A stretch of DNA of 64,000 bases from Anaerolineales bacterium (GCA_034430795.1 DAOUDJ010000222.1:5481-69480); one strand, 5' to 3'. Positions 22,616-55,204 are shown, counted from the first letter of the stretch. Made by a program: numbers and translations. The notes: generated by a model from the letters alone, not told the origin.

Positions 22616-22761
22616 AATGGAACCTGTGAATAATTACGAGGTTGATGTTCTCATACCTTTTGTAAAGGGAGGATCTCTGAAGATGGACGAAATGGTTCAA
22701 GCGCGGTTTTTGCGTACGAATGACGGTGCTGGAATTGTCAACAGGGTATAATCCCCGCCTG

Positions 22762-23772
22762 ATGCCAATGTCACGAAACTCGCGTAGATTTCTTGTCCTC
22801 CTTTTGGGAATACTCATCAGCGCTGCAGCGCTGTACCTAGTCCTACGTTGGGCTGGCTGGGAAGCCCTTCTCGCCGCGTTAAAACGGATGGACGTGCGCT
22901 TCTTGCTTCTTGCGGTTGTTGTTTATCTGATTTCTATGCTAGCGCGTGCGGCAGCATGGCAAACAATACTGAATCATAAGTATGGTTTCGGTCGAGTACT
23001 GGCCGCGTTGAATGAAGGCTATCTTCTAAATAACGTTCTCCCGTGGCGCCTCGGTGAGGTGGGACGCGCTGTTCTGCTCGGTCGACGATCGGGAGGATCG
23101 ATCTTATCGGTTCTTTCCTCGATCCTTGTTGAACGATTATTTGATCTCGCGCTTGCCTTAGGTTTGCTCTTCGCACTGTTGCCTCTTGTTGCCGGAATTC
23201 CGAACGTACCACGCACCGGATCGACGATCGCCATTGTCCTGATCTTTATCATTGCTGTTCTATGGCTTCTTGTCCGCAAGCCTGTATGGATAGAAAGCGT
23301 CCTCTGCCGGCTTCCCGGGGGTGGAAAGCGGTGGATGCCCGCCTGGGAACGCGTCCGGCAAGGCTTGCAGGCGCTTCAAGATCCTCGCGTGCTTTTTACG
23401 AGTCTTGGTTGGATGGTGCTCACGTGGGCTCTCGCCGGAGTAGAGTATTGGTTGGTCTTAAAAGCCCTTATCCCCGAAGCGGAATGGACCTGGGCGTTCT
23501 TCATGTTAACGATAACATTGCTCGGTGGAGCCATCCCTTCATCGCCGGGTTATTTTGGCGTGTTTGAGGCAGCAGGAGTATTGGCGCTCGCCGCGTTTGA
23601 TGTTCCGAAAGCGGAAGCCCTGGCCGTCTCGCTTACCATTCATGGAATGGTTTTTTCAATAGGATCTCTCTTCGGCCTTATAGCTTTGCTCAATGAAGGT
23701 GAGACGATCTCAGGGTTGTACCAGGATATCCGCAGGTGGCTCTCCTCTGGCTCGAATCAGCAAGCGGGTTAA
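22762..23772 (+). CDS. UPF0104 / LPG_synthase_TM (MprF flippase-domain-like) membrane protein
   Basis: 'LNEGYLLNNVLPWRLGEVGRAVLL' and an 8-TM layout match the lysyl-PG synthase TM-region family. Start is ATG 22762 or 22768 (the ORF is open from 22720). Confidence 0.78.
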   Translation: MPMSRNSRRFLVLLLGILISAAALYLVLRWAGWEALLAALKRMDVRFLLLAVVVYLISMLARAAAWQTILNHKYGFGRVLAALNEGYLLNNVLPWRLGEVGRAVLLGRRSGGSILSVLSSILVERLFDLALALGLLFALLPLVAGIPNVPRTGSTIAIVLIFIIAVLWLLVRKPVWIESVLCRLPGGGKRWMPAWERVRQGLQALQDPRVLFTSLGWMVLTWALAGVEYWLVLKALIPEAEWTWAFFMLTITLLGGAIPSSPGYFGVFEAAGVLALAAFDVPKAEALAVSLTIHGMVFSIGSLFGLIALLNEGETISGLYQDIRRWLSSGSNQQAG

Positions 23773-24927
23773 ATGCGCATACTGAACACGCTCTATTATT
23801 ATCGCCCTCATTTTTCCGGTCTGACGGTCTACACGGAACGTCTGGCGCGAATGCTTGTTTCTCAAGGGCACCAGGTGACGGTGTTAACATCGCAATACGA
23901 GCGGTCCCTTCGGCTGGTTGAAAAAATGGACGGCGTGGATGTAAAGCGAGTGCCCGTTGCGTTTAATGTCAGCAAGGGTCCGATCATGCCAACTTTCCTC
24001 TATCAGGCTGCGCGTTTGATCCCTGAGCATGACATCCTCCACCTGCACGTCCCGCAGCTCGAGGCAGCGCCTCTTTCGCTGCTTGGGCGCGCCTTTGGCA
24101 AACCTGTGGTGCTAACCTACCACTGCGATCTCATGCTGCCTCCCTCGTTGTTGAACGCGCTTGCAAACCGAATTTCAGATCTGGCGAATTCGATTTCGAC
24201 GAAAACCGCAAGTGCGATTGTTGTAAACTCGCGGGATTATGCGGAAGAATCACCGCTTTTGAGTAAAAGGCTCGAGAAAGTCGAAGTTATTCCGCCTCCA
24301 ATCGAGATGCCTGAACCGGATCCTATGGTCGTCCTATCTATGCGGAAGCGCTTCAAGATTGCCCCGGGGAGTCCGGTTATTGGAATGGCTGCACGTCTAG
24401 CGACAGAGAAAGGGGCCGAGGTGCTTGCTCAGGCGATGACGATCGTTCTCAAAGAAATGCCGAGCGCCCGCGTTTTTTATGTCGGTCAGCATGAAAATGT
24501 AATGGGCGAGGAGGCATATCGTGCCCGGCTTCTTCCGCAGATCGAGGCGCTTGGTGACCATTGGACTTTCTTGGGAATTCTCCAGCAGAGTGAGTTTGCG
24601 GCTTTCTTTAAGCTGTGTGATGTTACTGTGCTCCCCAGTTTGAACAGCACGGAGAGTTTCGGGATGGTTCAGGTCGAATCGATGCTCTCGGGAACCCCGG
24701 TTGTGGCCAGCGACCTCCCTGGGGTCCGGCAGCCTACTCAGACAACGGGTATGGGTTTAACATTCCCTCCAGGGGATGCGGACAAGCTTGCCGCCGCGCT
24801 TCTCCAGGTCCTTAGGAATCCTGCGGATTACACAAGCGACCGTGCCAGCGTTATGGCCCAATACTCAAGCGAAGTCGTATCGGCGAAGTATGAAACCATC
24901 TTTGCCAATATAATTTCGAAAGTGTAA
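23773..24927 (+). CDS. GT4-family (GT-B, retaining) glycosyltransferase
   Basis: 'MRILNTLYYYRPHFSGLTVYTERLA' N-terminus. EX7E region 'ESFGMVQVESMLSGTPVVASDLPG'. ATG directly abuts the upstream TAA. Confidence 0.88.
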   Translation: MRILNTLYYYRPHFSGLTVYTERLARMLVSQGHQVTVLTSQYERSLRLVEKMDGVDVKRVPVAFNVSKGPIMPTFLYQAARLIPEHDILHLHVPQLEAAPLSLLGRAFGKPVVLTYHCDLMLPPSLLNALANRISDLANSISTKTASAIVVNSRDYAEESPLLSKRLEKVEVIPPPIEMPEPDPMVVLSMRKRFKIAPGSPVIGMAARLATEKGAEVLAQAMTIVLKEMPSARVFYVGQHENVMGEEAYRARLLPQIEALGDHWTFLGILQQSEFAAFFKLCDVTVLPSLNSTESFGMVQVESMLSGTPVVASDLPGVRQPTQTTGMGLTFPPGDADKLAAALLQVLRNPADYTSDRASVMAQYSSEVVSAKYETIFANIISKV

Positions 24928-24940
24928 ATCTCAACAATAA

Positions 24941-25723
24941 ATGACGAAAGATTATTTTTGGCTGCATCTGCGTGATCTACCCTACTTTCGGGCACTTCTG
25001 CGTTCGATTGAAGCCGGCTACTACAAAGACCTGGATCTCCCATCACCGACTCTCGATGTGGGTTGTGGGGATGGACATTTCACAACGATCGCCTTCGATC
25101 GCCCAATTGAGATCGGCGTCGACCCTGATCTACCGATCATGCGCGAAGCTAAATCACGCCATGCGTATGATCTCCTTCTGCAAGCAGATGGGGCACGCAT
25201 GCCGCTCCCGGACCATTCAATCGCTTCGGCTTTCAGCAATTCGGTGCTCGAGCACATACCGCATCTTGACGCGGTTCTGCGAGATGTGGGTCGGGTGTTA
25301 AAGTCTGGCGCACCATTTGTGTTCACGGTGCCCAACCCGGGCTATCGTACGCAGCTGAGCCTCCCACGCAAGCTCTCTAAGGCAGGACTTTCGGCTCTGG
25401 GGAAGGCGTATGAAAGTTGGTTCATGCGCATGTCGCGAACGATAAACCTCGACGATGAGGGGGGTTGGGAACGGCGATTATCGGCAGCCGGTTTCACGAT
25501 CGAGCGAACCTTCCGCTACTTTCCACCGTCCTCCCTCCATGTTCTGGAGTGGGGGCATTACTTAGGTGGACCCTGCTTGCTCCCGCATAAACTATTCGGC
25601 AAGTGGATTCTCGCCCCTTATCGTTGGAATCTCGGTTTGACGGATAGGCTGGTGCGGCGATACTATGATACGTCGCCGACAGAAGACGGAACCTATAGCT
25701 TTTATCTGGTGCGTAAACGATGA
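24941..25723 (+). CDS. class I SAM-dependent methyltransferase
   Basis: Motif I 'LDVGCGDGHFT' and post-I/II 'ASAFSNSVLEHIP' (Methyltransf_11-like). Confidence 0.85.
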   Translation: MTKDYFWLHLRDLPYFRALLRSIEAGYYKDLDLPSPTLDVGCGDGHFTTIAFDRPIEIGVDPDLPIMREAKSRHAYDLLLQADGARMPLPDHSIASAFSNSVLEHIPHLDAVLRDVGRVLKSGAPFVFTVPNPGYRTQLSLPRKLSKAGLSALGKAYESWFMRMSRTINLDDEGGWERRLSAAGFTIERTFRYFPPSSLHVLEWGHYLGGPCLLPHKLFGKWILAPYRWNLGLTDRLVRRYYDTSPTEDGTYSFYLVRKR

Positions 25724-27933
25724 CCTCACCTGAGTCTGAACCTCTCATAAAACCCGAATCCGATCCGCCAGACGCACAGGAACCAAGCGTCCTGGATTGG
25801 TTGAAATCGCTGGTTCGTGGGCATCCGATCCCCATTCCCGAAGGACCCGTAGAGAGCGCAATCGATGATCTGCCAATGCAGGCGGTGGACGAGGAGCCTC
25901 AGCAAGAGGCGATCCTATCAACCTTCCGTTTTGAGGCATCTCAATTTCGGTTGCCGGTGGCGTTACTGCTAGCGCTTGCAGCGCAATTTGGTCTGGAACG
26001 TCGAGAAGGTTCGATTTGGATCAGTATTGTTCTGTACATCCTGGCTGGTGTGGTTATCGCTTGGGGGACTTGGTCAAAGGATTTCTTCTATAAAACACCT
26101 CCTACCTCAGACGAGAGGGTCAGTCCCGTCACCTATCGTCCGGCATTATTGTCTGCAGCACTTATTCTTTCTCTGCTTACATTCATCAGCTCTGGAAATA
26201 ACCTCTTCGATTTTCCGACCGTGGTCTTCTGGACCGCTTCTATCATCACCATCCTGTTGGCATTCTGGGATGGTGAATTCCCTCTGGTGAGCTGGTGGAG
26301 AAGGTTAAAGAGTTGGTTAGGTGACCCCAATCTGCATTTATCGCTTTCTGGCTGGGATCTTCTGGTTCTTGCCGGTTTCAGTCTTTCGGTCTACTTCCGG
26401 TTCTATCTCCTCGATTCGGTTCCACCGGAGATGGTCAGCGATCACGCTGAGAAATTGCTGGATGTCGTCGATGTGCTCAATGGAAAATACTCGATCTTTT
26501 TCCCGAGGAACACCGGGCGTGAGGCTATGCAGTTTTACATGGCTGCGGCGACGTACAAATGGTTAGGCACGGAGATCTCCTATCTCACCTTGAAAATCGG
26601 CACAGCCCTGGCCGGGGTTCTTACCTTACCTTTCATTTATCTCCTCGGTAAAGAAGTTGGGGGGAAGCGAGTTGGTCTCGCGGCTATGATTCTGGCGGGG
26701 ATCGCTTATTGGCCGAATGTGATAAGCCGGGTGGGGCTGCGGTTTCCGCTTTACCCCTTGTTCGTCGCTCCGGCTTTTTATTACCTGGCCAGAGGAATCC
26801 GTACTCGCAATCGGAATGATTTCCTGCTTTGTGGGTTGGTTGTTGGTATGGGACTTCATGGGTATAGCCCGGCGCGAGTAATCCCTATCGCCATCGCCGT
26901 GGGTATTAGCCTGTATCTTCTGCACAAGGGTTCGCAAGAACAGCGCCGGGTGATGATCACGCTGCTCGTAATCACAGGTCTCGTCGCTCTGATTGTGTTT
27001 ATGCCCCTGGTGCGAATTGCGGTAGATCGCCCGGATGAGGTGATCTACAGGATGACCACGCGCTTTGGGAGCGCCGAGCGGGATTTGCCAGGACCTGCAT
27101 TACAGATTTTCTTTTCAAATGTCTGGAACGGCTTGAAGATGTTCACCTGGGATAATGGCGAGGTATGGGTGAACTCCATCCCGCACCGTCCAGCGTTGGA
27201 TTGGGTCACTGGTGCTCTGTTCTCTCTTGGAGTGGTCATTGCATTGACCCGCTTTGTACGCTACCGGCGCTGGATCGATTTGTTCATTCTCGTCTCGATC
27301 CCCATCCTCCAGCTTCCATCAACGCTATCGCTTGCGTTTCCGGCCGAGAACCCAGCTACCAATCGGGCTGCGGGGGCGATCGTGCCTGCTTTCATCCTTG
27401 CTGGCTTGGCGTTTGCGGCAATTCCGGATTGGATCGAAACCCATTGGAAAGGACGCCAAACGGCCGGCTTCAGCCTAGTGTTCACCGGGTTGCTTTTATT
27501 AATAGCGGGTCGATTGAATTACCACCTCGTTTTTAAGGAATATCAAGATCTATATCGCCGGTCCGCATGGAATACGTCTGAGGCAGGCGCCGTGATTCGG
27601 AACTTTGCTGAATCGATCGGCTCCTATGAAACCGCGCATGTTGTCGCCTACCCTCATTGGGTGGATACACGACTTGTTGGGATAAACGCCGGTCAACCCA
27701 CCAAGGACTATGCCATTTCCGAGGAGGGCTTAGCGGATACGATCTTCGAAACCCGACCACAGCTCTTCCTGCTCCACCCGGATGATGTAGAGTCCTTACA
27801 GAAACTCAAAGAGCTCTACCCATTTGCACGGGTTACAGAGTACCCAAATATCATCGAGGGGAAGAATTTTATAATTTTTTCTGTTCCTTTCGCACCTGAA
27901 ACTCTACCAGAAGCGATCCGGGAATCCGAGTGA
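25720..27933 (+). CDS. GT-C-like (GT39/PMT_2-like) polytopic membrane glycosyltransferase, 737 aa
   Basis: ATGA overlap with the methyltransferase gene. Acidic cytoplasmic N-tail, then many TMs. 'FFPRNTGREAMQFYM...ALAGVLTLPFIYLLGKEVGGKRVGLAAMILAGIAYW' resembles ArnT/PMT_2-type GT-C cores. Confidence 0.7.
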   Translation: MTSPESEPLIKPESDPPDAQEPSVLDWLKSLVRGHPIPIPEGPVESAIDDLPMQAVDEEPQQEAILSTFRFEASQFRLPVALLLALAAQFGLERREGSIWISIVLYILAGVVIAWGTWSKDFFYKTPPTSDERVSPVTYRPALLSAALILSLLTFISSGNNLFDFPTVVFWTASIITILLAFWDGEFPLVSWWRRLKSWLGDPNLHLSLSGWDLLVLAGFSLSVYFRFYLLDSVPPEMVSDHAEKLLDVVDVLNGKYSIFFPRNTGREAMQFYMAAATYKWLGTEISYLTLKIGTALAGVLTLPFIYLLGKEVGGKRVGLAAMILAGIAYWPNVISRVGLRFPLYPLFVAPAFYYLARGIRTRNRNDFLLCGLVVGMGLHGYSPARVIPIAIAVGISLYLLHKGSQEQRRVMITLLVITGLVALIVFMPLVRIAVDRPDEVIYRMTTRFGSAERDLPGPALQIFFSNVWNGLKMFTWDNGEVWVNSIPHRPALDWVTGALFSLGVVIALTRFVRYRRWIDLFILVSIPILQLPSTLSLAFPAENPATNRAAGAIVPAFILAGLAFAAIPDWIETHWKGRQTAGFSLVFTGLLLLIAGRLNYHLVFKEYQDLYRRSAWNTSEAGAVIRNFAESIGSYETAHVVAYPHWVDTRLVGINAGQPTKDYAISEEGLADTIFETRPQLFLLHPDDVESLQKLKELYPFARVTEYPNIIEGKNFIIFSVPFAPETLPEAIRESE

Positions 27934-30900
27934 TTATGGCTGAAGTTGAAGCACCCATCGATCAACAACATGAGCCGCCTGAAAAAGAAAGATCCAGGGT
28001 TCTTTCGGATCTTACTGTTGGGATTCTTCTTATCGCGGTTCTCGGTCTGGCTGCGTACCTGCGTTTCACCGGCTTGAATTGGGATTCTCACACCCATCTC
28101 CACCCGGATGAACGCTTTCTTACGATGGTTGAGACCTCGATCCAACTTCCGCAGTCGATCGGGGAATATTTCAGCACCGAGACATCCCCTCTCAATCCGC
28201 ATAACGTTGGGCATGGCTTCTTCGTCTATGGTTCACTCCCGATCTTCCTCGTCCGCTATCTCGCTGAATGGACCGGGATGTCTGGCTATGACCAGGTACA
28301 TCTTCTAGGGAGGGCTGTTTCGGGAATATCCGATCTTGTATCGATCCTTCTGATATACCTGATCGGGGAAAGACTCTTCAATCGTCGGGTCGGGATTCTG
28401 GCAGCGCTGTTTACAGCCCTTTCGGTTTTGTTGATTCAACATGCGCATTTCTTCGTCGTCGACCCACTCGCCAATGTCTTTATCCTCGCCGGACTATATT
28501 TCTCGGTTCGAGTTATCGGCCAGGGGAAGCTCAGTGACTATCTTCTTTTCGGGGTCATGCTGGGGCTGGCGGTGGCCTCCAAAATCAGCGCTGCCCCTCT
28601 GGCGGTTGCTGTAGCGCTTGCTGGACTCACGAATATCCTTAGCGCCCCCTCGGATCAAAGGTCTGCTGTTTTCTCACGCACACTCACTTTCTTACTCGGC
28701 GCAGCGCTCCTGTCACTTCTTGTCTTCCGTATTTTCCAACCTTACGCTTTTGAAGGGCCGGGCTTCCTTGACGTGAGGTTCAACCCGAAGTGGCTGGCGA
28801 ATATGGCGGAGGTCCGAAGCCAGCAGGCAGGGAACACCGATGCTCCTTATGCGCTTCAGTGGGCTAATCGCGCGCCGGTCTTTTTCTCATTGAAAAATAT
28901 GATTTTATGGGGAATGGGCATACCGCTCGCGATCCTGGGCTGGATCGGTTTGGGCTGGGCTCTTGTCGAGATGATCCGCGGACGGTGGGAGCGGTATTTG
29001 ATCCCGGTGGTCTGGACAGCCGGCATGTTCATCTGGCAGTCGATCAATTTCACCAAGGCGATGCGCTACCAGCTGCCTGTTTATCCGACACTGGCATTAC
29101 TGGCAGCCTGGGTACTCTGGCATGTATGGGAGAGTGTCCCGCAGCTCAACGCCCAATGGCGAAAGGCAGCCCGAATCGGTGTGTTGTTGGTTGGATCAAT
29201 CACCATCCTGGGGACAGCTTTGTGGGCATATGCCTTCCACTCGATATACTCGGAGCCACTCACCCGGGTATCCGCATCGCGATGGATTTACAGGAATGTT
29301 CCGGCTGTCGTTAATCTGGTTGTAGAAGCAGACGGGGAAACGTTTTACGAGACAATCCCCATGCCCATACCCTATGATCTAAGCTCCGGTGACACCTATA
29401 CAACGGAGATCTCCACAGACGTCGCCGGAGTTATCAGCAGCGTTCTTCTACCCTATGTCTCGACGAATGATGGTAAGGACGGCATCCTGGGTCTTTCTGT
29501 AACGCTTGCAGATGAGCCAAACGCCGGATCCATATATGCGCGCGGGGAATTCCGCAGCGATGTACTCGCGGGCGAAGAAGCTCGGGTTGAAATCCAACTC
29601 GATCGATCCTTTAATATCGACCCAGATACTCGTCTGTTCCTGATTCTCGAGAATATCGGTGAGCCATCCCTGCATATGCGCCCATCTCTCCTGGTGCATG
29701 AAACTACCTGGGATGATGGCCTGCCGTGGGGGGTGGATGGCCGAGGGCTTGGCGGCAGATATGAGGTGCACAATCTTGAACTTTATTGGCACGATAACCA
29801 GGACGATGATGATAACGGAATCCCCGATAAGTTAGAGAGGATCGTGCAGTATTTGGAGCAGGGGGATTATCTTATGATCTCCTCTAACCGCCAGTATGGA
29901 ACGATCCCCCGCGTTCCAATCCGCTACCCACTTACTGCTGCCTATTACCGTGAGCTTTTCGGCTGCCCTGATGGAATGGATGTTCCCACGTGTGGTGCGA
30001 CCGCAGAGGTGGGATTGTACGCGGGCCGCTTAGGGTATTCACTCGTTGAGGTTTTTGAAAGTCACCCCTCAATTGGGGCGCTGAAAATCAACGATCAGTT
30101 CGCGGAAGAAGCCTTTACAGTCTATGACCATCCGAAGGTGTTGATCTTTAAGCGGGATGCAGATTTCAGCGCGGAAAAGGTCTTTGACTTTCTTTCCCAG
30201 GTCGACGTGAGCGGCGTCGTCCATGTGCTGCCAAAGGATGCCGGCGATACAGGGCAGGACTTACTGCTCTCGGCGGATAAATGGCAGAAACAGCAGGAGG
30301 AGGGCACCTGGTCAGAGATCTTCAACACAGAGAGCATCGTTAACCGCTCGGGATTGTTGAGCGCCATCCTCTGGTGGGTGGCGTTGGGTATTCTGGGTCT
30401 TCTGGTTTATCCCATAACGAGGGTCGTCTTCCGCAGCTTCCATGATGGCGGTTATGCGCTCTCGCGGTTGATTGGGCTGCTGCTATTCTCTTGGGGCGCT
30501 TGGATCTTCGGGAGCCTTGGGGTCACAGTCAGCCGCTTGACGCTCAGCATTGTGCTGCTGCTGCTCGCGGGTATTTCCTTCACCCTAGCATTGCGTGACC
30601 GAGAAGAACTTTCTACATTCTTCCGGACGCAATGGCGAGATATCCTTTGGGTAGAGGTTTTTGCGCTCAGTTTTTTCCTCGTGGATCTCGGGATTCGATA
30701 CGGGAACCCTGATTTATGGCATCCAGCAAAGGGTGGGGAGAAGCCGATGGACTTCTCCTATCTAAACGCCGTAATTAAGAGCTCAACCTTCCCTCCTTAT
30801 GATCCCTGGTTCGCTGGGGGGTATATCAACTACTACTACTACGGTTTCGTCCTCGTCGGAATGCCGGTGAAATTGCTGGGCATCGTCCCGGCGACAGCCT

Positions 30901-32897
30901 ACAATCTCATTATCCCAACGCTCTTCTCGATCCTGGCATTGTGCGCGTACAGCATGGGCTACCATCTTGTACGTTCGATTTCTCATAATATGTCTCTTCG
31001 CGTTAGGGCCAATCCCAAATTGGCGGGTCTCATCGCCGCGCTCCTGCTTGTGGTTTTTGGAAATCTGGGCACGGCCAGGATGTTCTATGATGGTTTCAAA
31101 CAGGTTGGCACCCCGGCAGGGGTTGAAGAGGGGAGCTTCATTGTTGGGGCGGGTCAAGCAGCCAAGGGATTTGTAAACTATCTGACGTACAAGTCTCCGC
31201 TTCCCTACCCGATGGACCAATGGTATTGGAACCCGAGCCGGATGATTACCCCCGGTGAGGGTGAGCCAGGGCCAATCACAGAATTCCCCTTCTTCACTTT
31301 CCTGTACGCTGATCTGCATGCTCACATGATCAGCCGCTCACTCACAATCCTTAGCCTGGCGTGGGGTTTATCGTGGATTCTTTCCGTTTCCCAGCGTCGC
31401 CGTCGAGGGAAAATCGACATCGCCCTGGCGTTGTTTGTGGGCGGTTTAACGCTTGGCGCGCTGCGACCTATTAACACATGGGATTTTCCCGTGTATTGGG
31501 TATTAGGAGTACTTGCAGTCCTCTACGCTGTGTGGTGGCGCGATCGAAAATTTGATCTACCACAAATTGCAGAAGCAGGTCTATATGCCATCCTGCTTTT
31601 AGCATTTTCGCAGTTCCTTTATCAACCGTACCATCAGTGGTACGGGCAGGGATATTTGTCCGCAGAGATCTGGAAGGGGTCTCTGACGTCCATGATTGAT
31701 TATCTGACGGTGCATGGAGTCTTCCTCTTCCTGATTGCAGCCTGGATGGTATGGGAAACTCGCGAGTGGATGGCCCAAACTCCGATTTCAGAACTGAACC
31801 GGCTGCGGCCGATTGCGACGTGGATTGGATCTGCGGCTTTCCTCATTGTGGCAGTTACCGCCTGGCTTGCGGGTATTGGATATCAGATTGCACTGATCGT
31901 CATCCCTCTCGGCGCTTGGGCGATGATACTGCTGCTGCGACCAGATCTTGCCTTAGGCAAGCGGATCGTGCTTTTCATCGTAGGAACTGGGCTGGTTCTT
32001 ACGTTTGTCGTGGAGGTCGTGGTACTCAAGGGGGATATCGGTCGCATGAACACGGTCTTCAAATTCTACCTCCAGGTGTGGGAGCTCTTCAGCCTGGCTG
32101 CAGCTGCAGCTCTCGCATGGACGTACACCTCACTTCCGAAATGGGATCGCGTATGGCGGTGGGGCTGGCTGACGGCAACGGTTTTGCTTTTATTCTCTGC
32201 CGCGTTGTATCCCCTCACGGCATCTATATCGAAAGTCCGGGATCGGATGACGGTAACCGCGCCGCGGACGCTCGACGGCATGCTCTATATGGATTACGCC
32301 GTCCGCTTCGAATTGGGCGAGAAACTATCCTTGGGAGAGGATTATCAAGCGATTCGTTGGATGCAGGAAAATGTCGAGGGTTCACCGGTTATCGTTGAAG
32401 CGAATATTCCTGAGTATCGTTGGGGTTCGCGTTATTCGATCTACACCGGACTCCCGGGTGTCCTGGGATGGCGCTGGCATCAAACCCAGCAGCGCGTCGC
32501 CGCGGAAAACACTGAGACGGACGAACGGCTATTCCAAATAACAAATTTCTACCTCACACGAACGATCGCAGAAGCGAAAGAATTCCTCGCTGAATATAAT
32601 GTTAAGTATGTCGTCGTCGGCGAGCTGGAACGCGCTTATTACGCCGAGGTCTATCCGTGCTGGCCGGATGCGAGTGTACCGGGCATATCCTGTGATCTGC
32701 GCGGTTGGCCGCTGGGCATGCCGACATCGTTCCCGATCTCGCCTGACGAATGTGAACTGGAACACCCCGAGGATGAAACCTCGAGCCTGCGCTGCCCGAC
32801 ACATGCTCTGGATAAATTCCCCGCCATGGAATCTGAAGGAAGTCTCCTCGCCGTCTTCCAGGATGGGAAAACGGTGATCTATGAGGTTGTAAAGTGA
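27930..32897 (+). CDS. 1655-aa fusion: N-terminal GT-C (TIGR03663/PMT_2-like, 'HPDERF') module + soluble domain + C-terminal DUF2298 'Chlor_Arch_YYY' module
   Basis: GTGA overlap upstream. 'HPDERF' lies in the first loop (28101-28118). 'EKPMDFSYLNAVIKSSTFPPYDPWFAGGYINYYYYG' (30738-30845). The C-terminal half is paralogous to the next gene. Confidence 0.8.
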   Translation: MIMAEVEAPIDQQHEPPEKERSRVLSDLTVGILLIAVLGLAAYLRFTGLNWDSHTHLHPDERFLTMVETSIQLPQSIGEYFSTETSPLNPHNVGHGFFVYGSLPIFLVRYLAEWTGMSGYDQVHLLGRAVSGISDLVSILLIYLIGERLFNRRVGILAALFTALSVLLIQHAHFFVVDPLANVFILAGLYFSVRVIGQGKLSDYLLFGVMLGLAVASKISAAPLAVAVALAGLTNILSAPSDQRSAVFSRTLTFLLGAALLSLLVFRIFQPYAFEGPGFLDVRFNPKWLANMAEVRSQQAGNTDAPYALQWANRAPVFFSLKNMILWGMGIPLAILGWIGLGWALVEMIRGRWERYLIPVVWTAGMFIWQSINFTKAMRYQLPVYPTLALLAAWVLWHVWESVPQLNAQWRKAARIGVLLVGSITILGTALWAYAFHSIYSEPLTRVSASRWIYRNVPAVVNLVVEADGETFYETIPMPIPYDLSSGDTYTTEISTDVAGVISSVLLPYVSTNDGKDGILGLSVTLADEPNAGSIYARGEFRSDVLAGEEARVEIQLDRSFNIDPDTRLFLILENIGEPSLHMRPSLLVHETTWDDGLPWGVDGRGLGGRYEVHNLELYWHDNQDDDDNGIPDKLERIVQYLEQGDYLMISSNRQYGTIPRVPIRYPLTAAYYRELFGCPDGMDVPTCGATAEVGLYAGRLGYSLVEVFESHPSIGALKINDQFAEEAFTVYDHPKVLIFKRDADFSAEKVFDFLSQVDVSGVVHVLPKDAGDTGQDLLLSADKWQKQQEEGTWSEIFNTESIVNRSGLLSAILWWVALGILGLLVYPITRVVFRSFHDGGYALSRLIGLLLFSWGAWIFGSLGVTVSRLTLSIVLLLLAGISFTLALRDREELSTFFRTQWRDILWVEVFALSFFLVDLGIRYGNPDLWHPAKGGEKPMDFSYLNAVIKSSTFPPYDPWFAGGYINYYYYGFVLVGMPVKLLGIVPATAYNLIIPTLFSILALCAYSMGYHLVRSISHNMSLRVRANPKLAGLIAALLLVVFGNLGTARMFYDGFKQVGTPAGVEEGSFIVGAGQAAKGFVNYLTYKSPLPYPMDQWYWNPSRMITPGEGEPGPITEFPFFTFLYADLHAHMISRSLTILSLAWGLSWILSVSQRRRRGKIDIALALFVGGLTLGALRPINTWDFPVYWVLGVLAVLYAVWWRDRKFDLPQIAEAGLYAILLLAFSQFLYQPYHQWYGQGYLSAEIWKGSLTSMIDYLTVHGVFLFLIAAWMVWETREWMAQTPISELNRLRPIATWIGSAAFLIVAVTAWLAGIGYQIALIVIPLGAWAMILLLRPDLALGKRIVLFIVGTGLVLTFVVEVVVLKGDIGRMNTVFKFYLQVWELFSLAAAAALAWTYTSLPKWDRVWRWGWLTATVLLLFSAALYPLTASISKVRDRMTVTAPRTLDGMLYMDYAVRFELGEKLSLGEDYQAIRWMQENVEGSPVIVEANIPEYRWGSRYSIYTGLPGVLGWRWHQTQQRVAAENTETDERLFQITNFYLTRTIAEAKEFLAEYNVKYVVVGELERAYYAEVYPCWPDASVPGISCDLRGWPLGMPTSFPISPDECELEHPEDETSSLRCPTHALDKFPAMESEGSLLAVFQDGKTVIYEVVK

Positions 32898-35542
32898 TCC
32901 AAGACGTCTTCACCTGGTGGTTGATAAGCACGTTGGTAGGCGCTATGGCGCTGCCAATTGCATGGCGGATCTTCGGACGGCTCGAGGACCGCGGTTATGG
33001 TTTCGCCAGGGCTCTAGGGCTGCTCTTGACCGGATATATTTTCTGGATGGGAGCCACGCTGCGGCTTTTCCAACCGAGCCTTGGTGGAGCGGTGATGGCG
33101 CTTCTTGCGCTCTTGGTGTTGAGCGTCTGGATTGGTCGTAGCACGTGGCGCGATGTTCTTGATTGGCTCAAAGAACACCGTTCCACAGTTCTAATCATGG
33201 AGATCCTTTTCCTGCTCGCGTTCTTGGCTTGGGCGTTTGTGCGGGCGAACAACCCGGAAATCACCGGAACAGAAAAACCGATGGAGCTCGCGTTCCTAAA
33301 TTCGATTCTGCGCTCAGACAGCTTCCCACCTCACGATCCATGGCTCTCGGGCTATGCGATCTCCTATTATTACTTCGGCTATATACTTCTGGCCTTGCTC
33401 ACTCGGCTCACGGGCGTTGCCTCTGGGGTCGCCTTCAATCTTGGGAATAGTCTCTGGTTTGCGCTGGTCGCCTTGGGCACATACTCTCTCGCATATAATT
33501 TCCTCTCCCGACGGACGCCCGGACGTGTTAAACGATTTTCACCGCTTCTTGCGCCGCTCTTCGTCTTGATCAGCGGAAATTTAGGAGCCTTCCTCGAGGT
33601 CCTTTATTCAAAATACATCTTCTGGACGACGACCACCACCGGTGTTTTTTTGACGTCGCCGTTCTGGACCTGGATTGGACTTGAGGATCTGGAAAAACCG
33701 CCCTCGCTCTTGCTCGAAGCGAGTTGGATGCCGCAACGATACTTGTGGTGGTGGCGTTCATCACGCGTGATCAGGGATCTCGACCTCAATGGTCTTCCAC
33801 TCGGATTACAGTCGATCGACGAATTCCCGTTCTTCACTTTCCTGCTTGCAGACAATCACCCCCACCTTTTAGCGATGCCCTTCGTACTCATGGTAATCGC
33901 ATTCGCTTTCCAGGTTTTCCTCCAGGGACAGCGGACACCTCTTCGTTTGGGAGAGGTGAAGTGGACTCACAGCCTGCGTAAAAATCTGTTAATTGCCCTG
34001 GGTTTGGTATTGGCGATCGTCGTGGTCGTCCTGGGAATGAAAGCCGGAGCGGCAGATCTGGGGATATCCGCGGCATTCATTTCAATTATTAAAGGTATCG
34101 TGACAAGCGGGATTATATTTGGGGCTATGCTTCTTGTCGGGGCGATCGCAGGCGGCTTGCTCCCATCTTCTCTCAATAAGCTCGAATTCTGGTTCGGAGC
34201 ATGGCTCTTCGGGGCGCTGGCTTTCTTGAATACCTGGGATTTCCCGATTTATTTCATCTTGCTCTTCTGTGTGATGATCTGGAGGAGTCGTACGCTCCCG
34301 CTTACAGTTTGGGTTAAATCGGTGCTCACGACGAGCTTCGCATTCATCGTAGCTGCCATCCTGCTTTATATTCCCTGGTATCCATCGTTCTCATCACAGG
34401 CAGGCGGTATCCTGCCGCACTTGATGCATCCCACTCGTTTTCTCCATTTCTTCATCATGTTCGCGGTCTTGTTCATCCCTTTGACTGTCTGGCTTATCAT
34501 GCGAGTGATGCAGGGGAGAAGGCGATCGGAGGGGAAGTGGCTTTTCGGAATAAGCCTGGGATTCCCGCTCGCACTCTTGATCCTCTCGTGGCTTTTCGCA
34601 GCAATGATTTACCTCGTGGGTGCAAACGTCATCGGAATGGGGGCGATCCTCAGCAGCATGGGGATGGACAGCCTCCGCGATGCCGCTCGAGCGACAATCA
34701 CTATCCGATTAACGCAGTCGTGGACAGCGATCGGCTTGGGCGTGATGATCGCCGCCACCGTTGTGCTCATCAGACGTGTATGGAAAGACTCTCCGAGCGA
34801 TACCAAACCAGGTCCTTTCATTCTTATGATGATCACGATTGGGGCGCTCTTGATACTTGGTCCTGAGTTTTTCTATCTCAAAGACCAATTCGGGCTGCGC
34901 ATGAATACGATTTTTAAATTCTACTTTGCTGCCTGGGTCTTTTGGGGCCTTGCCGCAGCATACGTGATGGATGTGATCTGGTCCAAACGGAGTGCGAAGA
35001 TGATCCCCGTGCAGATACTCACGGTTCTCCCATTGCTTGCCGGGCTCATGTATCCTGCCCTATCCGTGTGGACGAAAACAAACGGCTTAAACCCGGTCCA
35101 TGGCCGAACGTTGAATGGAGCTTTGCACCCTGCCTACGCGAGCGAAGCGGATCGTGACGCGATCCAATGGATGAGCGATAATTTGGATGTCGGGGTTGTT
35201 GCGGAAGCCGTCGGTGGTAGTTATTCGTACTTTGCGAGAGTATCTGTGCATACGGGATTCCCGACCATTATCGGTTGGCCTGGTCATGAAAGCCAGTGGC
35301 GCGGCGGATACCAGTACCACGGAACGCGGGAAGAGGATGTCAGGACACTGTATAAGTCGCCAGATTGGGAACAAACTCAAGAGATACTGAAAACCTATAA
35401 TGTGAAGTATGTATACATTGGAGAACTTGAGCGAATGGCATACCCACCCATCTTTGATGGAAAATTTGATGCATTCATGGAACTGGTTTACCAAAACGAC
35501 AGGGTTAAAATCTACGCTAGAAGAGCAGGTGACTCCTCTTGA
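32894..35542 (+). CDS. DUF2298 / 'Chlor_Arch_YYY' domain membrane protein, 882 aa
   Basis: GTGA overlap upstream. 'TEKPMELAFLNSILRSDSFPPHDPWLSGYAISYYYFG' (33272-33379). The C-terminal soluble domain 'GFPTIIGWPGHESQWRG...YNVKYVYIGELER' parallels that of the 1655-aa protein. Confidence 0.8.
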   Translation: MIQDVFTWWLISTLVGAMALPIAWRIFGRLEDRGYGFARALGLLLTGYIFWMGATLRLFQPSLGGAVMALLALLVLSVWIGRSTWRDVLDWLKEHRSTVLIMEILFLLAFLAWAFVRANNPEITGTEKPMELAFLNSILRSDSFPPHDPWLSGYAISYYYFGYILLALLTRLTGVASGVAFNLGNSLWFALVALGTYSLAYNFLSRRTPGRVKRFSPLLAPLFVLISGNLGAFLEVLYSKYIFWTTTTTGVFLTSPFWTWIGLEDLEKPPSLLLEASWMPQRYLWWWRSSRVIRDLDLNGLPLGLQSIDEFPFFTFLLADNHPHLLAMPFVLMVIAFAFQVFLQGQRTPLRLGEVKWTHSLRKNLLIALGLVLAIVVVVLGMKAGAADLGISAAFISIIKGIVTSGIIFGAMLLVGAIAGGLLPSSLNKLEFWFGAWLFGALAFLNTWDFPIYFILLFCVMIWRSRTLPLTVWVKSVLTTSFAFIVAAILLYIPWYPSFSSQAGGILPHLMHPTRFLHFFIMFAVLFIPLTVWLIMRVMQGRRRSEGKWLFGISLGFPLALLILSWLFAAMIYLVGANVIGMGAILSSMGMDSLRDAARATITIRLTQSWTAIGLGVMIAATVVLIRRVWKDSPSDTKPGPFILMMITIGALLILGPEFFYLKDQFGLRMNTIFKFYFAAWVFWGLAAAYVMDVIWSKRSAKMIPVQILTVLPLLAGLMYPALSVWTKTNGLNPVHGRTLNGALHPAYASEADRDAIQWMSDNLDVGVVAEAVGGSYSYFARVSVHTGFPTIIGWPGHESQWRGGYQYHGTREEDVRTLYKSPDWEQTQEILKTYNVKYVYIGELERMAYPPIFDGKFDAFMELVYQNDRVKIYARRAGDSS

Positions 35543-37308
35543 ATAATCATCGGAGCATCAGGCTGGATACTGTAATGCTCGCAATCTTGGTCGCGTTGAT
35601 TGCATGGACGCGGATTGCAGACTTAGGCAGGATTCCACTCACCGATACTGAAGCAGTTCATGCCCTTACAGCAGCATCGACGACTCCGGATGCTTCCCCC
35701 TTTTGGGATATGGATGGCGTGGCGGCACCGGTAAGTGCGAGCTATTACGTCTTCACCACCATGATCTTCCAACTCTTTGGTCCAACCGATGCAGCGGCGC
35801 GTATCGTTTCAGCGCTTGCCGGCATCGTGCTGGTTTTGAGCCCGTTGGTCCTGCGGAAACGAATTGGCACAGCCCGTTCGCTGATAGCAGTTCTGGTGCT
35901 GGCCATCGCCACGTCTGGTTGGACGAGCGCAAGAACCGCCGGCGGCTCAACTCTAGCAGCTGCGGGTCTGGCGGTCTTCGTATTCCTCGCCTGGTCGTCG
36001 GACACAGCTGACGATAAACGGGTTCGGCTTCTGCTCGCGGCAGGCGCGCTTGGCTTCGCGTTTGCGTCAGGACCGACCATCGTCCAAGGTTTGTTCGGTC
36101 TGCTGGTTGGATTCGGCCTGTCACGCCTGCTTGCATCCCGGCATCGGAAACCATTTGAAGAATTTATACGTTTAATTGCAGTTAAATCTAGCCTTTGGGT
36201 TTCTCTTGTTGTGATGCTCCTTGTCGCCTCAGGCGCTGGTTTCTATTGGAATGGACTTGCCGGGTTGGGCGAATCCCTTACGCAATGGCTGCAAGGCTGG
36301 ACAGGGCCGGGTCTACATTCAGCAATTGCCTATGTCGTGATGCTCGTGAGTTATGAGCCTTTGTTTGTAGGGATTGGGCTCGTTGGAGCGGTTCTCGCCT
36401 GGTGGCGCAAAGATTCTCTCGGGCAGGCAGCCAGCCTATGGGTATTGGGCAGCCTGTTCAGCGGCCTTGTTTATCCTGCACGGGGTGCGGCGGATTTGAT
36501 CTTTGTGGTCCTTCCTTTAGCCCTTCTGGTATCTTATACCGTCTCGATTTTGATTGAACGAATTGCCCGCCGTCGCGTCGGACTCGAATTAGTAGGTCTT
36601 GCCAGTGTGCTCCTGGTGCTGACAGCTTCTGCCTGGATATCGCTTGCCGGCTACGCAAATGGTTACATCTTGGAGTACACACCGACCGACCCGGGGCTAA
36701 TCCTGCTTGTATTTAGCGCATTGATTATTATGGCGGTTAGCCTACTTTTATTCTTTGGCTTGGGATGGTCCTGGGATGTTGTGGCCGATGTGCTTGGGAT
36801 TACGGCTACGCTTGTGCTGGCAGCGATCACGCTCTCTGCAGCGTGGCGCTTGAATTTCGCGGCTCTTTCAACAGGCGCCAGGGAGATCTGGCGTCCTGAG
36901 GTAACTACGACTGGGATGCGGCTGCTCACGAATACACTCGATAATGCCTCACTCGCCTTCGCGGGCCGAAAAGATGAGATCGCTGTCGAGGTGCAATCTG
37001 AGGTCAACCCAGCACTGGCGTGGGCGCTGCGCGGTTACAATCGAGCGGGAGGTGAAATCAACTTACTTGTAGATCCCTCCCCGGCGGTCCTCGCTTTGGA
37101 GTCAAATTCTGCTACCAGTTTACTTACCGACTATATGGGCCAGGGGATGGCTTTGAAGGAGCGGCGTGATTGGGAAGGCAGTCTACCGCCGAATTTGCTG
37201 CGTTGGTTTGTGCTCCGCTCGGCGCCTACGGAATTCGAGCGTTGGATTCTCTGGGTGCGGATGGATATCGCCACTCTCGGCGATGTGGGGTTGTCCGATA
37301 TTGAATAA
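35539..37308 (+). CDS. polytopic GT-C-like membrane protein, 589 aa
   Basis: TTGA overlap upstream (alternative ATG at 35575). First loop 'RIPLTDTEAVHALTA' followed by 'FGPTDAAARIVSALAGIVLVL', the usual GT-C/PMT_2 N-terminal pattern. Soluble C-terminal domain. Confidence 0.6.
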   Translation: MNNHRSIRLDTVMLAILVALIAWTRIADLGRIPLTDTEAVHALTAASTTPDASPFWDMDGVAAPVSASYYVFTTMIFQLFGPTDAAARIVSALAGIVLVLSPLVLRKRIGTARSLIAVLVLAIATSGWTSARTAGGSTLAAAGLAVFVFLAWSSDTADDKRVRLLLAAGALGFAFASGPTIVQGLFGLLVGFGLSRLLASRHRKPFEEFIRLIAVKSSLWVSLVVMLLVASGAGFYWNGLAGLGESLTQWLQGWTGPGLHSAIAYVVMLVSYEPLFVGIGLVGAVLAWWRKDSLGQAASLWVLGSLFSGLVYPARGAADLIFVVLPLALLVSYTVSILIERIARRRVGLELVGLASVLLVLTASAWISLAGYANGYILEYTPTDPGLILLVFSALIIMAVSLLLFFGLGWSWDVVADVLGITATLVLAAITLSAAWRLNFAALSTGAREIWRPEVTTTGMRLLTNTLDNASLAFAGRKDEIAVEVQSEVNPALAWALRGYNRAGGEINLLVDPSPAVLALESNSATSLLTDYMGQGMALKERRDWEGSLPPNLLRWFVLRSAPTEFERWILWVRMDIATLGDVGLSDIE

Positions 37309-37396
37309 CGAGGATGTAGAGGTTGAGCCTGTTCCACTCTCAACTGTATATTCAGTTGTTAGGCAACAGCCAGCTATAGAGCAAGGAGATTGTCCA

Positions 37397-37825
37397 ATGG
37401 GGTCACTCGCAGATCTTATAATCGCGTTATCTAGCGATGCTCCGGCTATTGTAGCATCCGAATACCCACTCGGCACTTTCAAGGGCACCAATGTTGACGG
37501 GCTCGATCCGTTCAAACTTGCGGCACTTCATACCTTGTTCACCACAATGGATTTCAGTGATTTGCTTAAGCAATACCAGCCTGTTGCTGAGGCATCCGCC
37601 AGTGGCCCATGGCTTATCAAGTTTCCTGATGAACTGATTGCGTTTCTGGCCGACCTTGCCCCTCAAAACTTTGGATCCACTGCAGCCAAGTGGAGTGCCA
37701 CTGATCAGGTTCAGGTGGAAGGGTGGTCGGAGCAGGAAGCGGAACAGTTCCTCGCTCGCGCCGTAAATTTCGCTCAGATAGCAGTGTTTGAAGGGAAGGA
37801 TATTTTTCTCTGGATATACAACTGA
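37397..37825 (+). CDS. hypothetical soluble acidic protein (142 aa)
   Basis: ATG 37397 follows SD 'aaggaga' (37383-37389). The upstream part of ORF 37166.. overlaps the preceding gene and looks non-coding. No family recognised. Confidence 0.5.
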   Translation: MGSLADLIIALSSDAPAIVASEYPLGTFKGTNVDGLDPFKLAALHTLFTTMDFSDLLKQYQPVAEASASGPWLIKFPDELIAFLADLAPQNFGSTAAKWSATDQVQVEGWSEQEAEQFLARAVNFAQIAVFEGKDIFLWIYN

Positions 37826-38055
37826 TCGACAGTTGCTGCCTATCGCTGGAGACGACCAAGGATGCGGCGCGATTTGCTTACATGATTATATGATGGGGAT
37901 GCTTGGGGGTACAGGCGATGCTCCGGTACCCGGTCGCTCCCCACAAACCCCACTCCGCTTCGCTCCGGGGGCGCAAAGCAGAACGTGGGATTTCACTGCT
38001 CAAAGCCGTTATGTCTAAGGGAATCCTTAGTTGCGTGGTTGAGGAGGACTGAAGC

Positions 38056-38751
38056 TTGAAACCAAGGATGATCGCGATCGATGGACCTGCCGCCTCTGGA
38101 AAATCGACTCTAGCTCAGAACCTCGCCTCTGCGCTGGGTTATCTTTACTTTGATACCGGTGTGATGTACCGGGCGGTTACTTTGGCAGCCTTGATCTCCG
38201 ACACCCCTGTGAAGGATGAAGTTGGGGTAACCGCGATTGCAAATGAGCTGGATCTTGACGTTCAACCGCCAAGCTCCGATGACGGTCGCCAGTGTGATGT
38301 TCTCATGAATGGCGAGGATGTGACCTGGGAGATCCGTAGTCCAGCGGTGGACGAGAATGTATCACAAGTGTCTATGTATCCGGGAGTGCGTCAGGCGATG
38401 ACTGTGCGTCAACGCGAGATAGGTTTGCGGGGTGCAGTCGTGATGGTCGGCAGAGATATAGGAACAGTCGTCCTACCTGAGGCAGAATTAAAGATCTACT
38501 TGGATGCTTCCGTTGAAGCCAGAGCAAATCGGCGCTATGAGGAAAGTCTGCAGCGTGGAAATCCTGTGGAGTATGATGTGATCCTAAAAAGAATGCGCGA
38601 GCGGGACAGGCTCGATTCGACACGCACACTAGCGCCTCTGCGACCCGCTGATGATGCTGTAATACTCGACTCGACCAAGCTATCCATCCACGATGTATTT
38701 GAGAAGGCGCTCGAGCTCGCAGAAGACGTTAATCAACATGGGGAAGATTAA
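38056..38751 (+). CDS. cmk: cytidylate kinase
   Basis: P-loop 'IAIDGPAASGKST' and 'YFDTGVMYRAVT'. TTG 38056 lies 7 nt after SD 'gaggagga'; alternative ATG at 38068. Confidence 0.93.
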   Translation: MKPRMIAIDGPAASGKSTLAQNLASALGYLYFDTGVMYRAVTLAALISDTPVKDEVGVTAIANELDLDVQPPSSDDGRQCDVLMNGEDVTWEIRSPAVDENVSQVSMYPGVRQAMTVRQREIGLRGAVVMVGRDIGTVVLPEAELKIYLDASVEARANRRYEESLQRGNPVEYDVILKRMRERDRLDSTRTLAPLRPADDAVILDSTKLSIHDVFEKALELAEDVNQHGED

Positions 38752-38752
38752 T

Positions 38753-55020: not shown

Positions 55021-55204
55021 AAAACCATTATACGTGAAGCGTCATCTGAATGAAACTCACCCACTCTAGGGCCGTCGAAAAATCCACAATGTTCGTCCGT
55101 TCAATAGAGGCGCCCGGTTAAGGTCCTATCCTTATGTGGGTTCGCTCCTTAAGGTTTGAACAAATGTGATGGGGATTCTCCTGTCAAAGGATAGGAATCA
55201 AAAG

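Follow-up and report, generated by a model that had tools for sequence, protein, structure and literature searches.

A conserved Anaerolineae operon that joins a putative glycolipid synthase/flippase module to five GT-C modules and very probably builds a cell-envelope glycan

In mycobacteria, phosphatidylinositol mannosides (PIM), lipomannan (LM) and lipoarabinomannan (LAM) are made by the GT4 enzymes PimA and PimB', followed by flipping and then by the GT-C enzymes PimE, MptA/B/C, EmbC and Aft, with polyprenyl-phosphate donors supplied via Ppm1 and the UbiA-family enzyme Rv3806c, and the mycobacterial decaprenyl-phosphate phosphoribosyltransferase starts the synthesis of the decaprenyl-phospho-arabinose donor of the GT-C arabinosyltransferases. 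ArnT, another GT-C enzyme, is the undecaprenyl-phosphate-4-amino-4-deoxy-L-arabinose (L-Ara4N):lipid A transferase. Smaller operons, gpgSDF of Pseudomonas aeruginosa (glucosaminyl phosphatidylglycerol, GlcN-PG) and hexSDF of Clostridioides difficile (an aminohexosyl glycolipid), combine a GT4 synthase and a modifier with a UPF0104 protein of predicted flippase activity. In archaea, a neighbourhood of UPF0104, PMT/STT3-like and glycosyltransferase genes has been predicted to be a glycosylation system (Makarova et al., 2015), and Agl23 of Haloarcula hispanica has been studied genetically, its purified form flipping M5GN2-PP-Dol in liposomes (PMC11182771). Here we analyse a stretch of 64,000 nucleotides from an Anaerolineales bacterium (GCA_034430795.1, DAOUDJ010000222.1:5481-69480; hereafter the window, whose numbering is used throughout), in which seven genes of the plus strand, g1 to g7, from 22720 (longest reading frame of g1) to 37308, encode a flippase-like protein, a GT4 glycosyltransferase, a methyltransferase and four large membrane proteins. 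The operon very probably builds a cell-envelope glycan. Our preferred account, to which we give slightly less than an even chance, is that it encodes a pathway spanning both faces of the cytoplasmic membrane, which builds a conserved envelope glycoconjugate from a flipped methylated glycolipid through elaboration by GT-C enzymes.

The seven same-strand genes and their six junctions, first proposed in a reading of this DNA made without database searches (the sequence-only reading), were all reproduced base for base (Table 1). The g1 stop and the g2 start abut as TAA and ATG (23770-23775), a 13-nt spacer (24928-24940) separates g2 from g3, and the remaining junctions are start/stop overlaps: ATGA at 25720 (g3/g4), GTGA at 27930 (g4/g5), GTGA at 32894 (g5/g6) and TTGA at 35539 (g6/g7). 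Our listing takes the longest possible open reading frame (ORF), and the overlaps thus hinge on the start codon chosen. An alternative start of g5 is the ATG at 27936, 3 nt past the g4 stop, and g1 probably begins at 22762 or 22768 rather than at 22720, because its homologues begin at the MSRN-like position. The start of g6 is pinned by the conserved W8/W9, which leave no space for a later one, and that of g7 by transmembrane helix 1 at residues 9-26, no other start codon lying near the TTG. Relatives at 44-50% identity, whose genes were called independently, have 4-nt overlaps or gaps of at most 16 nt at g4/g5, g5/g6 and g6/g7; therefore the packing is conserved and no chance feature. The locus is a seven-gene, tightly packed operon, conserved across Anaerolineae.

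Table 1. Features of the operon and its surroundings in the 64-kb window.
Feature	Position	Strand	Assignment	Size or evidence
Isopentenyl phosphate kinase	19152-19925	-	isopentenyl phosphate kinase	NF040647 157 bits
Mevalonate kinase	19922-20857	-	mevalonate kinase	TIGR00549 250 bits
UbiA-family gene	20854-21774	-	decaprenyl-phosphate phosphoribosyltransferase homologue	NF008977 267 bits (cut-off 234), NF008978 234 bits (cut-off 207)
g1	22720-23772	+	UPF0104/PplT flippase-like protein	350 aa, longest ORF
g2	23773-24927	+	GT4 glycosyltransferase	384 aa
g3	24941-25723	+	class-I methyltransferase	260 aa
g4	25720-27933	+	ArnT/PMT_2-like GT-C	737 aa; PF13231 41.5 bits (cut-off 26.1)
g5	27930-32897	+	two GT-C modules and a middle domain	1655 aa
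g5, N-terminal module	27930-29246	+	ArnT/PMT_2-like GT-C	PF13231 52.4 bits, residues 128-265
g5, middle domain	29247-30299	+	hydrophilic, conserved, no known fold match	~350 aa (residues ~440-790)
g5, C-terminal module	30300-32897	+	DUF2298/TIGR03662 (Chlor_Arch_YYY) GT-C	residues 810-1572
g6	32894-35542	+	stand-alone DUF2298/TIGR03662 GT-C with AglB-like C-terminal globular domain	882 aa
g7	35539-37308	+	divergent Agl23/TIGR03663-like GT-C, ArnT-like fold	589 aa
ORF between g7 and cmk	37397-37825	+		142 aa
cmk and two PlsC-type acyltransferases	38056-40173	+	conserved downstream neighbours	Pfam, NCBIfam
tRNA-Thr	55204-55277			
Second GT4	55366-56640	+	PF20706 "GT4 in conflict systems"	97.7 bits

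Together, the four proteins g4-g7 contain five GT-C modules, which fall into two classes. The sequence-only reading had counted four GT-C paralogs, but g5 carries both a PMT_2 and a DUF2298 module. The first class comprises g4, the N-terminal module of g5 and g7. In g4, a ~94-aa acidic, proline-rich N-terminal extension and a ~130-aa C-terminal soluble domain frame the protein, and the stretch before the PMT_2 region has conserved residues at D241, E244, K245 and D248, while the N-terminal module of g5 carries a canonical HPDE motif (H58 P59 D60 E61). The second class is formed by the C-terminal module of g5 (TIGR03662 524 bits, cut-off 300; PF10060 382 bits, cut-off 27.8) and by g6 (487 and 338 bits against the same two cut-offs), which are colinear at 26-29% identity and have all the g6 motifs in common. 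Both display the 'YYY' signature pointed out earlier, and the motif is invariant, as NYYYYGF in g5 and ISYYYFGY in g6 (Y158-160). Further invariant residues of g6 are E127, E131, D148, E310, D320, H322, H324, R669, N671, K675, W795, H798, E799 and R803; its conserved C-terminal motif GWPGHExQWRG and its loop motif I-[DT]-E-F-P are neither of them canonical STT3/AglB/PglB motifs. In each family alignment, acidic positions recur in at least 93% of the sequences: D241, E244 and D248 of g4, HPDE 58-61 of the N-terminal module of g5, E127, E131 and D148 of g6 together with the corresponding residues of the C-terminal module of g5, and E38 of g7. A topology analysis by loop charge counts covered g6 and g7, where the loops that bear these conserved residues, and in g6 E310/D320/H322/H324 as well, are D/E-rich and K/R-poor and alternate with K/R-rich ones, which suggests that the acidic, presumably catalytic loops and the C-terminal domains of both proteins face outward.

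Between its two modules, g5 contains a domain whose alignment shows invariant E, D, K, R and Y residues, including a YY pair, and into which some lineages have inserted ~125 aa. Neither Pfam nor PDB profiles matched this middle domain, and Pfam scans of 22 homologues gave nothing consistent. It is probably extracytoplasmic, and by position it would be equivalent to the C-terminal periplasmic domain of ArnT-like enzymes. Elsewhere, four giant Chloroflexota proteins (P0349, P0351, P0402 and P0409; 2,434-2,719 aa) match DUF2298 in several stretches from residue ~710-830 onward, two of them being named, one as a "YYY domain-containing protein" and the other as a Chloroflexota hypothetical protein.

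To relate the modules to one another we assembled an alignment of each family out of 82 related loci and set the resulting profiles against one another with hhalign. Within the first class, g4, the g5 N-terminal module and g7 were mutually related, with probabilities of 97% (g4/g5 N-terminal), 95% and 85% (g4/g7), and within the second the g5 C-terminal module matched g6 with a probability of 100%. A homology between DUF2298 and the PMT_2-type families was not detectable by this comparison (probability at most 41%), and we therefore treat them as two GT-C classes related at the fold level only. Searches of the PDB returned nothing meaningful, by sequence or by profile, whether the query was one of g4-g7, the family profile of g6 or of g7, or the middle domain of g5; fold comparison alone succeeded. 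The AlphaFold (AF2) models are confident and have a predicted local distance difference test (pLDDT) score of 81.5 for g6 and 85.8 for g7, and a predicted template modelling (pTM) score of 0.87 for each. When the g6 model was compared with the PDB by Foldseek, all seven matches at E<=1e-3 were GT-C enzymes: DPY19 (a C-mannosyltransferase, 4.8e-6), STT3A, STT3B and AftA. Its C-terminal globular domain alone matched the C-terminal domain of AglB-S2 (3vu0, prob 1.0, TMt 0.54), while its global TM-scores were low (0.27-0.40), the likeness holding at the fold level only. For the g7 model the best match was ArnT (5f15, E 1e-9, TM 0.54-0.60) at 13-14% identity, and the top 36 matches were all of GT-C fold: after ArnT came oligosaccharyltransferase (OST), AglB, ALG3/9/12, AftA, EmbB, Pmt, the glycosylphosphatidylinositol (GPI)-transamidase subunit PIG-U and PimE. 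A GT-C fold is thereby supported for all four large proteins, as had been supposed, by the PMT_2 Pfam family for g4 and the N-terminal module of g5 and by comparison of predicted models for g6 and g7; the C-terminal module of g5, being homologous to g6, is counted as GT-C too.

The structural matches of g6 bear on the main rival of our account, namely that the operon serves protein glycosylation. According to this explanation, DUF2298 would act like an oligosaccharyltransferase or like the DPY19/PMT enzymes and would load secreted or surface proteins with sugars or glycans taken from polyprenyl-phosphate carriers; the ArnT/Agl23-like modules would add or translocate lipid-linked sugars, and g1-g3 would help to build or flip a lipid-linked glycan. 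Besides the DPY19 and STT3A/B matches and the AglB-like C-terminal domain, it draws on the proximity of g7 to the Agl23 family, whose Agl23 acts in archaeal N- and O-glycosylation, on the archaeal UPF0104, PMT/STT3-like and glycosyltransferase neighbourhoods that were predicted to be such systems, and on the NHL or PA14 domains borne by PMT_2 proteins that stand beside DUF2298 in other Chloroflexota. However, one GT-C enzyme is normally enough for protein glycosylation, while here there are five modules in a fixed order, and no initiating phosphoglycosyltransferase for a lipid-linked oligosaccharide was found in the operon or the window. In addition, global TM-scores are low (0.27-0.38) when g6 is compared with STT3 and DPY19, the glycan-acting AftA is also a significant match, and a WWDYG-type motif was not identified in g6, whose conserved C-terminal motif is of another kind. 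We regard protein glycosylation as possible but, on balance, somewhat unlikely.

All the families named by the sequence-only reading score above the curated Pfam and NCBIfam cut-offs except for g7, which reaches 29.3 bits against the TIGR03663 cut-off of 126.25 and has no Pfam match. As TIGR03663 is nevertheless matched by 21 of 21 members of the g7 family (best E 4.3e-30), with only one weak match of a single member to an unrelated family besides (E 0.0065), we consider g7 a divergent Agl23-like relative and not a certified member. This kinship opens another explanation, in which some of the GT-C-fold proteins, g7 above all, would be translocators or scramblases of polyprenyl-phosphate sugars and the cluster would serve lipid-carrier trafficking. 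The matches of the g7 family speak for it, and so do the NCBIfam name of TIGR03663, flippase activity-associated, and the finding that purified H. hispanica Agl23 is active as a flippase in proteoliposomes and rescued a yeast rft1-delta strain (PMC11182771); since the characterised Agl23 is reported as a flippase, g7 is possibly no transferase. Yet g7 keeps the hallmarks of active GT-C transferases, with an invariant E38 in its acidic first outward loop, an ArnT-like fold and a C-terminal soluble domain; g1 is already a candidate flippase, and translocation would account for one of the five modules at most. A trafficking role for the cluster thus seems to us very unlikely.

The three small genes supply the other half of our account, glycolipid synthesis and flipping. 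g1 encodes a polytopic membrane protein of the UPF0104/PplT (MprF-type) flippase-like family (PF03706 167 bits, cut-off 33.4; TIGR00374 72.7 bits, cut-off 43.2), for which a flippase role is predicted by analogy. g2 is a GT4 glycosyltransferase, a cytoplasmic, retaining enzyme of GT-B fold (PF00534 94.8 bits, with PF13439 and PF13579 also matching), whose best sequence matches in the PDB are PimA (70 bits) and PimB' (48 bits), and which we propose to be a lipid-acceptor glycosyl synthase. g3 is a class-I S-adenosylmethionine (SAM)-dependent methyltransferase (PF08241 51.7 bits, PF13489 42 bits). Gene fusions underline the coupling of these functions: in the relative L084 (6855-9032) the UPF0104 and GT4 proteins are fused into one of 725 aa, with the layout of MprF and a GT4 replacing the aminoacyl-phosphatidylglycerol synthase, and in L085 (3687-5780) the GT4 and the methyltransferase are fused into 697 aa. 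PplT fused to GT-B domains had previously been noted in Chloroflexi. Other relatives add enzymes here, at least 15 loci with a short-chain dehydrogenase/reductase (SDR) sugar-nucleotide epimerase/dehydratase of the GDP_Man_Dehyd and Epimerase Pfam families ahead of the GT4 (e.g., L051, 707-1732) and 14 with a second SAM methyltransferase ahead of g4 (e.g., L063, 2903-3643). Both are absent from the operon of the window, and among the relatives variation is confined to this cytoplasmic part.

A scan of the genome collection returned 587 relatives of the locus, of which we inspected the best 80. These 80 are all from Chloroflexota, including the cultured Ornatilinea apprima (L051) and the genome of Brevefilum fermentans, the closest homologues coming from uncultured Anaerolineales at up to 91% identity, and all the named matches of a DUF2298 representative search were likewise from Chloroflexota. 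Of the distribution given in the sequence-only reading, mainly Chloroflexi and Archaea, these searches covered the Chloroflexota part. One 26-kb contig (L003, JAIWHF010000015.1), labelled as a metagenome-assembled genome of a "Methanosarcinales archaeon", holds a complete copy of the operon that is 88% identical to that of the window; the contig's coverage is very low, and it is probably a mis-binned Anaerolineales contig and no archaeal copy. Synteny, proposed earlier as a check, proved to be strongly conserved in Anaerolineae when the window proteins were compared with the loci by tblastn. Counting only the loci that cover the position concerned, the genes found beside g6 were the g5 C-terminal module in 61/63, the g5 N-terminal module in 56/59, g4 in 47/54, g3 in 40/52, g2 in 44/51, g7 in 59/70 and cmk in 54/64. 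Anaerolineae genomes keep this gene order even where g6 identity has fallen to ~35%, and the g5 fusion is retained in 52 full-length ORFs. The fixed gene content, the housekeeping setting and the class-wide conservation suggest that the product is a constitutive, structurally conserved envelope component and not a strain-variable capsule or O-antigen.

These data also allow us to weigh the idea that two functions share one transcript, g1-g3 making a methylated glycolipid as an end product, comparable to the GlcN-PG of Pseudomonas, and g4-g7 making a separate envelope polymer. Trios of the gpgSDF type are self-contained, the GT-C core occurs without g1-g3 in L081, and g2 and g3 are absent beside the core in ~15-25% of the loci that cover the region. 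Against this, the order g1-g2-g3-g4, with its overlapping or abutting junctions, is kept in most Anaerolineae loci down to ~35% identity, and apart from g1-g3 the operon offers the five GT-C modules no acceptor, so we judge a division of the operon into two functions unlikely. As an observation on the core itself, in L081 (5843-18654), which belongs to another Anaerolineae lineage, the g5-like and g6-like pair adjoins nitrate reductase subunits and precedes two further genes, one for a protein of 614 aa that matches no Pfam family and one for a 1079-aa PMT_2 protein fused to an NHL-repeat beta-propeller. A published table of Chloroflexi neighbourhoods groups DUF2298, PMT2/PA14 and PMT2 genes.

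The pathway that we favour, from a flipped methylated glycolipid to a GT-C-elaborated glycoconjugate, would run as follows. On the cytoplasmic face, g2 would glycosylate a membrane lipid acceptor with a nucleotide sugar as donor and g3 would methylate the product, a stage to which many relatives would contribute the SDR enzyme and the second methyltransferase. By analogy with MprF, gpgSDF and hexSDF, g1 would then carry the glycolipid to the outer leaflet. Outside, the three ArnT/PMT_2/Agl23-like modules (g4, g5 N-terminal, g7) and the two DUF2298 modules (g5 C-terminal, g6) would elongate or decorate the flipped primer, or hand the glycan to a final acceptor, using polyprenyl-phosphate sugars. 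The MprF-like fusion, the PplT/GT-B fusions of Chloroflexi and the gpgSDF and hexSDF analogues support the g1-g3 half, and the relatedness of g2 to PimA and PimB' fits, weakly, an analogy with the path from PIM to LM and LAM. The sequence-only reading had let the UPF0104 protein flip a lipid-linked intermediate, taken here to mean a polyprenyl-linked one, an assignment that we do not follow: the characterised operons of the same content, gpgSDF and hexSDF, make glycerolipid-based glycolipids, and it is these that are proposed to be flipped.

Several observations weigh against this pathway. It is the packing that points to a single transcript, and scans of the 21.5-38.3 kb region for promoters (15 promoter-like sites vs 12.5 expected) and terminators (19 terminator-like sites vs 18.4 expected) stood at chance level. 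The match of g2 to PimA spans only the nucleotide-sugar (donor-binding) half of the enzyme (residues 211-378), and its match to the GlcNAc-PG synthase/GpgS equivalog NF053787, although full-length, reaches 38.4 bits against a cut-off of 480. The DUF2298 and PMT_2 core stands without the GT4, methyltransferase and flippase genes in L081, and DUF2298 stands alone in L082, so that the two halves, g1-g3 and the GT-C core, can work independently. In structure, g6 comes closest to enzymes that glycosylate proteins (DPY19 and STT3), and its AglB-like C-terminal domain points to such enzymes too. As for the donor, neither a GT2 polyprenyl-phosphate sugar synthase nor an initiating phosphoglycosyltransferase was found in the operon or the 64-kb window. 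The operon is consequently not the "complete line" that it had been taken for, and because the window lacks a donor-forming enzyme of these kinds, we conclude that the lipid-linked donor of the GT-C modules is not encoded here. One candidate for its source lies next to the operon, the UbiA-family gene, but this lead is also burdened: tlyA, plus lepA in relatives, separates the gene from the operon, in L049 and L058, two distant relatives, it was not seen in the ~3 kb that precede g1, and no FAD-oxidase (DprE1-type) or SDR (DprE2-type) gene was found near the locus, in the window or in L083-L085.

The UbiA-family protein passes two NCBIfam equivalog cut-offs (Table 1), matches the solved mycobacterial enzyme (PDB 8j8j) over its full length (residues 18-302) with an E of 6e-44, and could be the source of a polyprenyl-phospho-pentose in this lineage. 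Its ORF and those of the mevalonate kinase and the isopentenyl phosphate kinase overlap one another and are divergent from tlyA and the operon; a polyprenyl-phosphate-using enzyme is here translationally packed with genes of the alternative mevalonate pathway (19152-21774). The adjacency of the UbiA and kinase genes to the operon is kept in three relatives (L083-L085). We rejected these three genes as a firm part of the operon on account of their divergent transcription, the intervening tlyA/lepA and the distant relatives just mentioned, and the UbiA-family neighbour is only a weak lead to the sugar donor. If the lead were followed to its end, the carriers of the operon in Anaerolineae and other Chloroflexota would make a hitherto unknown lipid-anchored furanosyl glycan, a counterpart of LAM or arabinan, primed by the GT4-made methylated glycolipid and polymerised by the DUF2298 pair and the ArnT/Agl23-like GT-C modules from polyprenyl-phospho-ribose or -arabinose provided by the UbiA neighbour. 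We hold this to be decidedly improbable, but, were it true, DUF2298 would represent a new family, common to these bacteria and Archaea, of glycan polymerases that depend on polyprenyl-phospho-pentose.

The remaining surroundings, in the relatives and in the window, are of a housekeeping kind, with lepA and/or tlyA upstream and cmk, plsC and glmS downstream. In the distant relatives, lepA (elongation factor EF4) stands directly upstream of the flippase-like gene, with a 4-nt overlap in L049 (1351-3219 and 3216-4226) and at 1762-3561 in L058; in the closer relatives L083 and L085 it lies between tlyA and g1, and in the window it is missing from that place. The cmk and PlsC genes may be co-transcribed with the operon in relatives, and the cmk ORF of L002 begins before the g7 homologue has ended. 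In the window, ~650 nt between g7 and cmk (37309-38055) have no counterpart in the closest relatives, the gap being 100 nt in L004 and L015. An ORF of 142 aa in this stretch has AAGGAGA as its ribosome-binding site and matches no Pfam family; possibly an orphan gene was inserted here recently. Further away, a second GT4 gene, with a match to a family of GT4 in conflict systems, adjoins the tRNA-Thr gene, and this distant tRNA was the only RNA element returned by Rfam and tRNA scans of the window. The GC content is level over the locus and its flanks (0.51-0.54), and this flat profile, together with the conserved housekeeping surroundings, led us to reject a horizontal acquisition of the locus.

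To our knowledge, the envelope chemistry of Anaerolineae is essentially uncharacterised. It is the Chloroflexota class with most genomes, 2,518 in a published survey. Our literature searches for DUF2298, TIGR03662 and TIGR03663 returned no functional study, DUF2298 having two incidental mentions, and a search for Chloroflexi with decaprenyl-phosphate phosphoribosyltransferase found nothing. The claim that these families have no assigned function therefore stands for DUF2298 and TIGR03662 but has been overtaken for TIGR03663, now "flippase activity-associated protein Agl23" in NCBIfam. DUF2298, which is matched by 9,034 clusters (50% identity) at E<=1e-3, has no PDB relative by sequence and no solved structure. 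The idea of such a system is not new either, as the archaeal neighbourhoods were predicted before, and building inside, flipping and extending outside with GT-C enzymes is an established logic that involves no new principle. What we believe to be undescribed is the pair of DUF2298 modules, one joined to an ArnT-like module through a ~350-aa domain with no known relatives, and the class-wide operon that links this pair to a glycolipid synthase/flippase module. With this locus, a concrete set of genes is at hand for tracing the major glycan or glycoprotein of the envelope in the filamentous Anaerolineae and for assigning DUF2298 a first function; the locus could also help to decide between a transferase and a flippase role for Agl23-like proteins.

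Finally, the operon can be set beside the described systems. With ArnT it shares the best structural match of g7, the PMT_2 Pfam family that covers g4 and the N-terminal module of g5, and an inferred layout in which the N-terminus lies inside, the first outward loop is acidic and the C-terminal domain is soluble; it differs in having no arnA/B/C/D/E/F partners and in the low identity between ArnT and g7. With the archaeal systems it shares a DUF2298/TIGR03662 gene directly followed by a TIGR03663-like gene, and a UPF0104 flippase-like gene and a glycosyltransferase in one neighbourhood. The bacterial operon departs from them in having a pair of DUF2298 modules, of which one forms a fusion with an ArnT-like module, in encoding a GT4 instead of the AglD/Agl22-type GT2 and in having a g7 that falls below the TIGR03663 cut-off.

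The resemblance to the mycobacterial PIM/LM/LAM and arabinogalactan pathways lies in a cytoplasmic GT4 for which PimA and PimB' are the best matches of solved structure, in several GT-C enzymes with presumably outward active sites, AftA, EmbB and PimE being among their structural matches, and in a full-length decaprenyl-phosphate phosphoribosyltransferase homologue beside the locus. The GT-C proteins here are, however, DUF2298, Agl23-like and ArnT-like and not of the GT87/GT53/GT85 type, a dedicated UPF0104 flippase-like gene and a methyltransferase are present, and the window of this Chloroflexota host contains no Ppm1-like GT2. Of the Rv3806c-type donor pathway, which further comprises a DprE1/DprE2 pair and a phospholipid phosphatase, a homologue of the UbiA enzyme was found, while DprE1/DprE2-type genes were not found near the locus, either in the window or in L083-L085. 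The closest parallel in gene content for the first half of the operon is with gpgSDF and hexSDF, since a GT4, a modifier and a UPF0104 gene stand together in one operon (g2, g3 and g1 being adjacent) and the UPF0104-GT4 fusion in a relative underlines their coupling. The modifier here is a SAM methyltransferase and theirs a deacetylase, and g2 remains below the GpgS cut-off. Moreover, the trio here is joined to ~12 kb of GT-C genes, and for this reason its glycolipid is probably an intermediate and not the end product.

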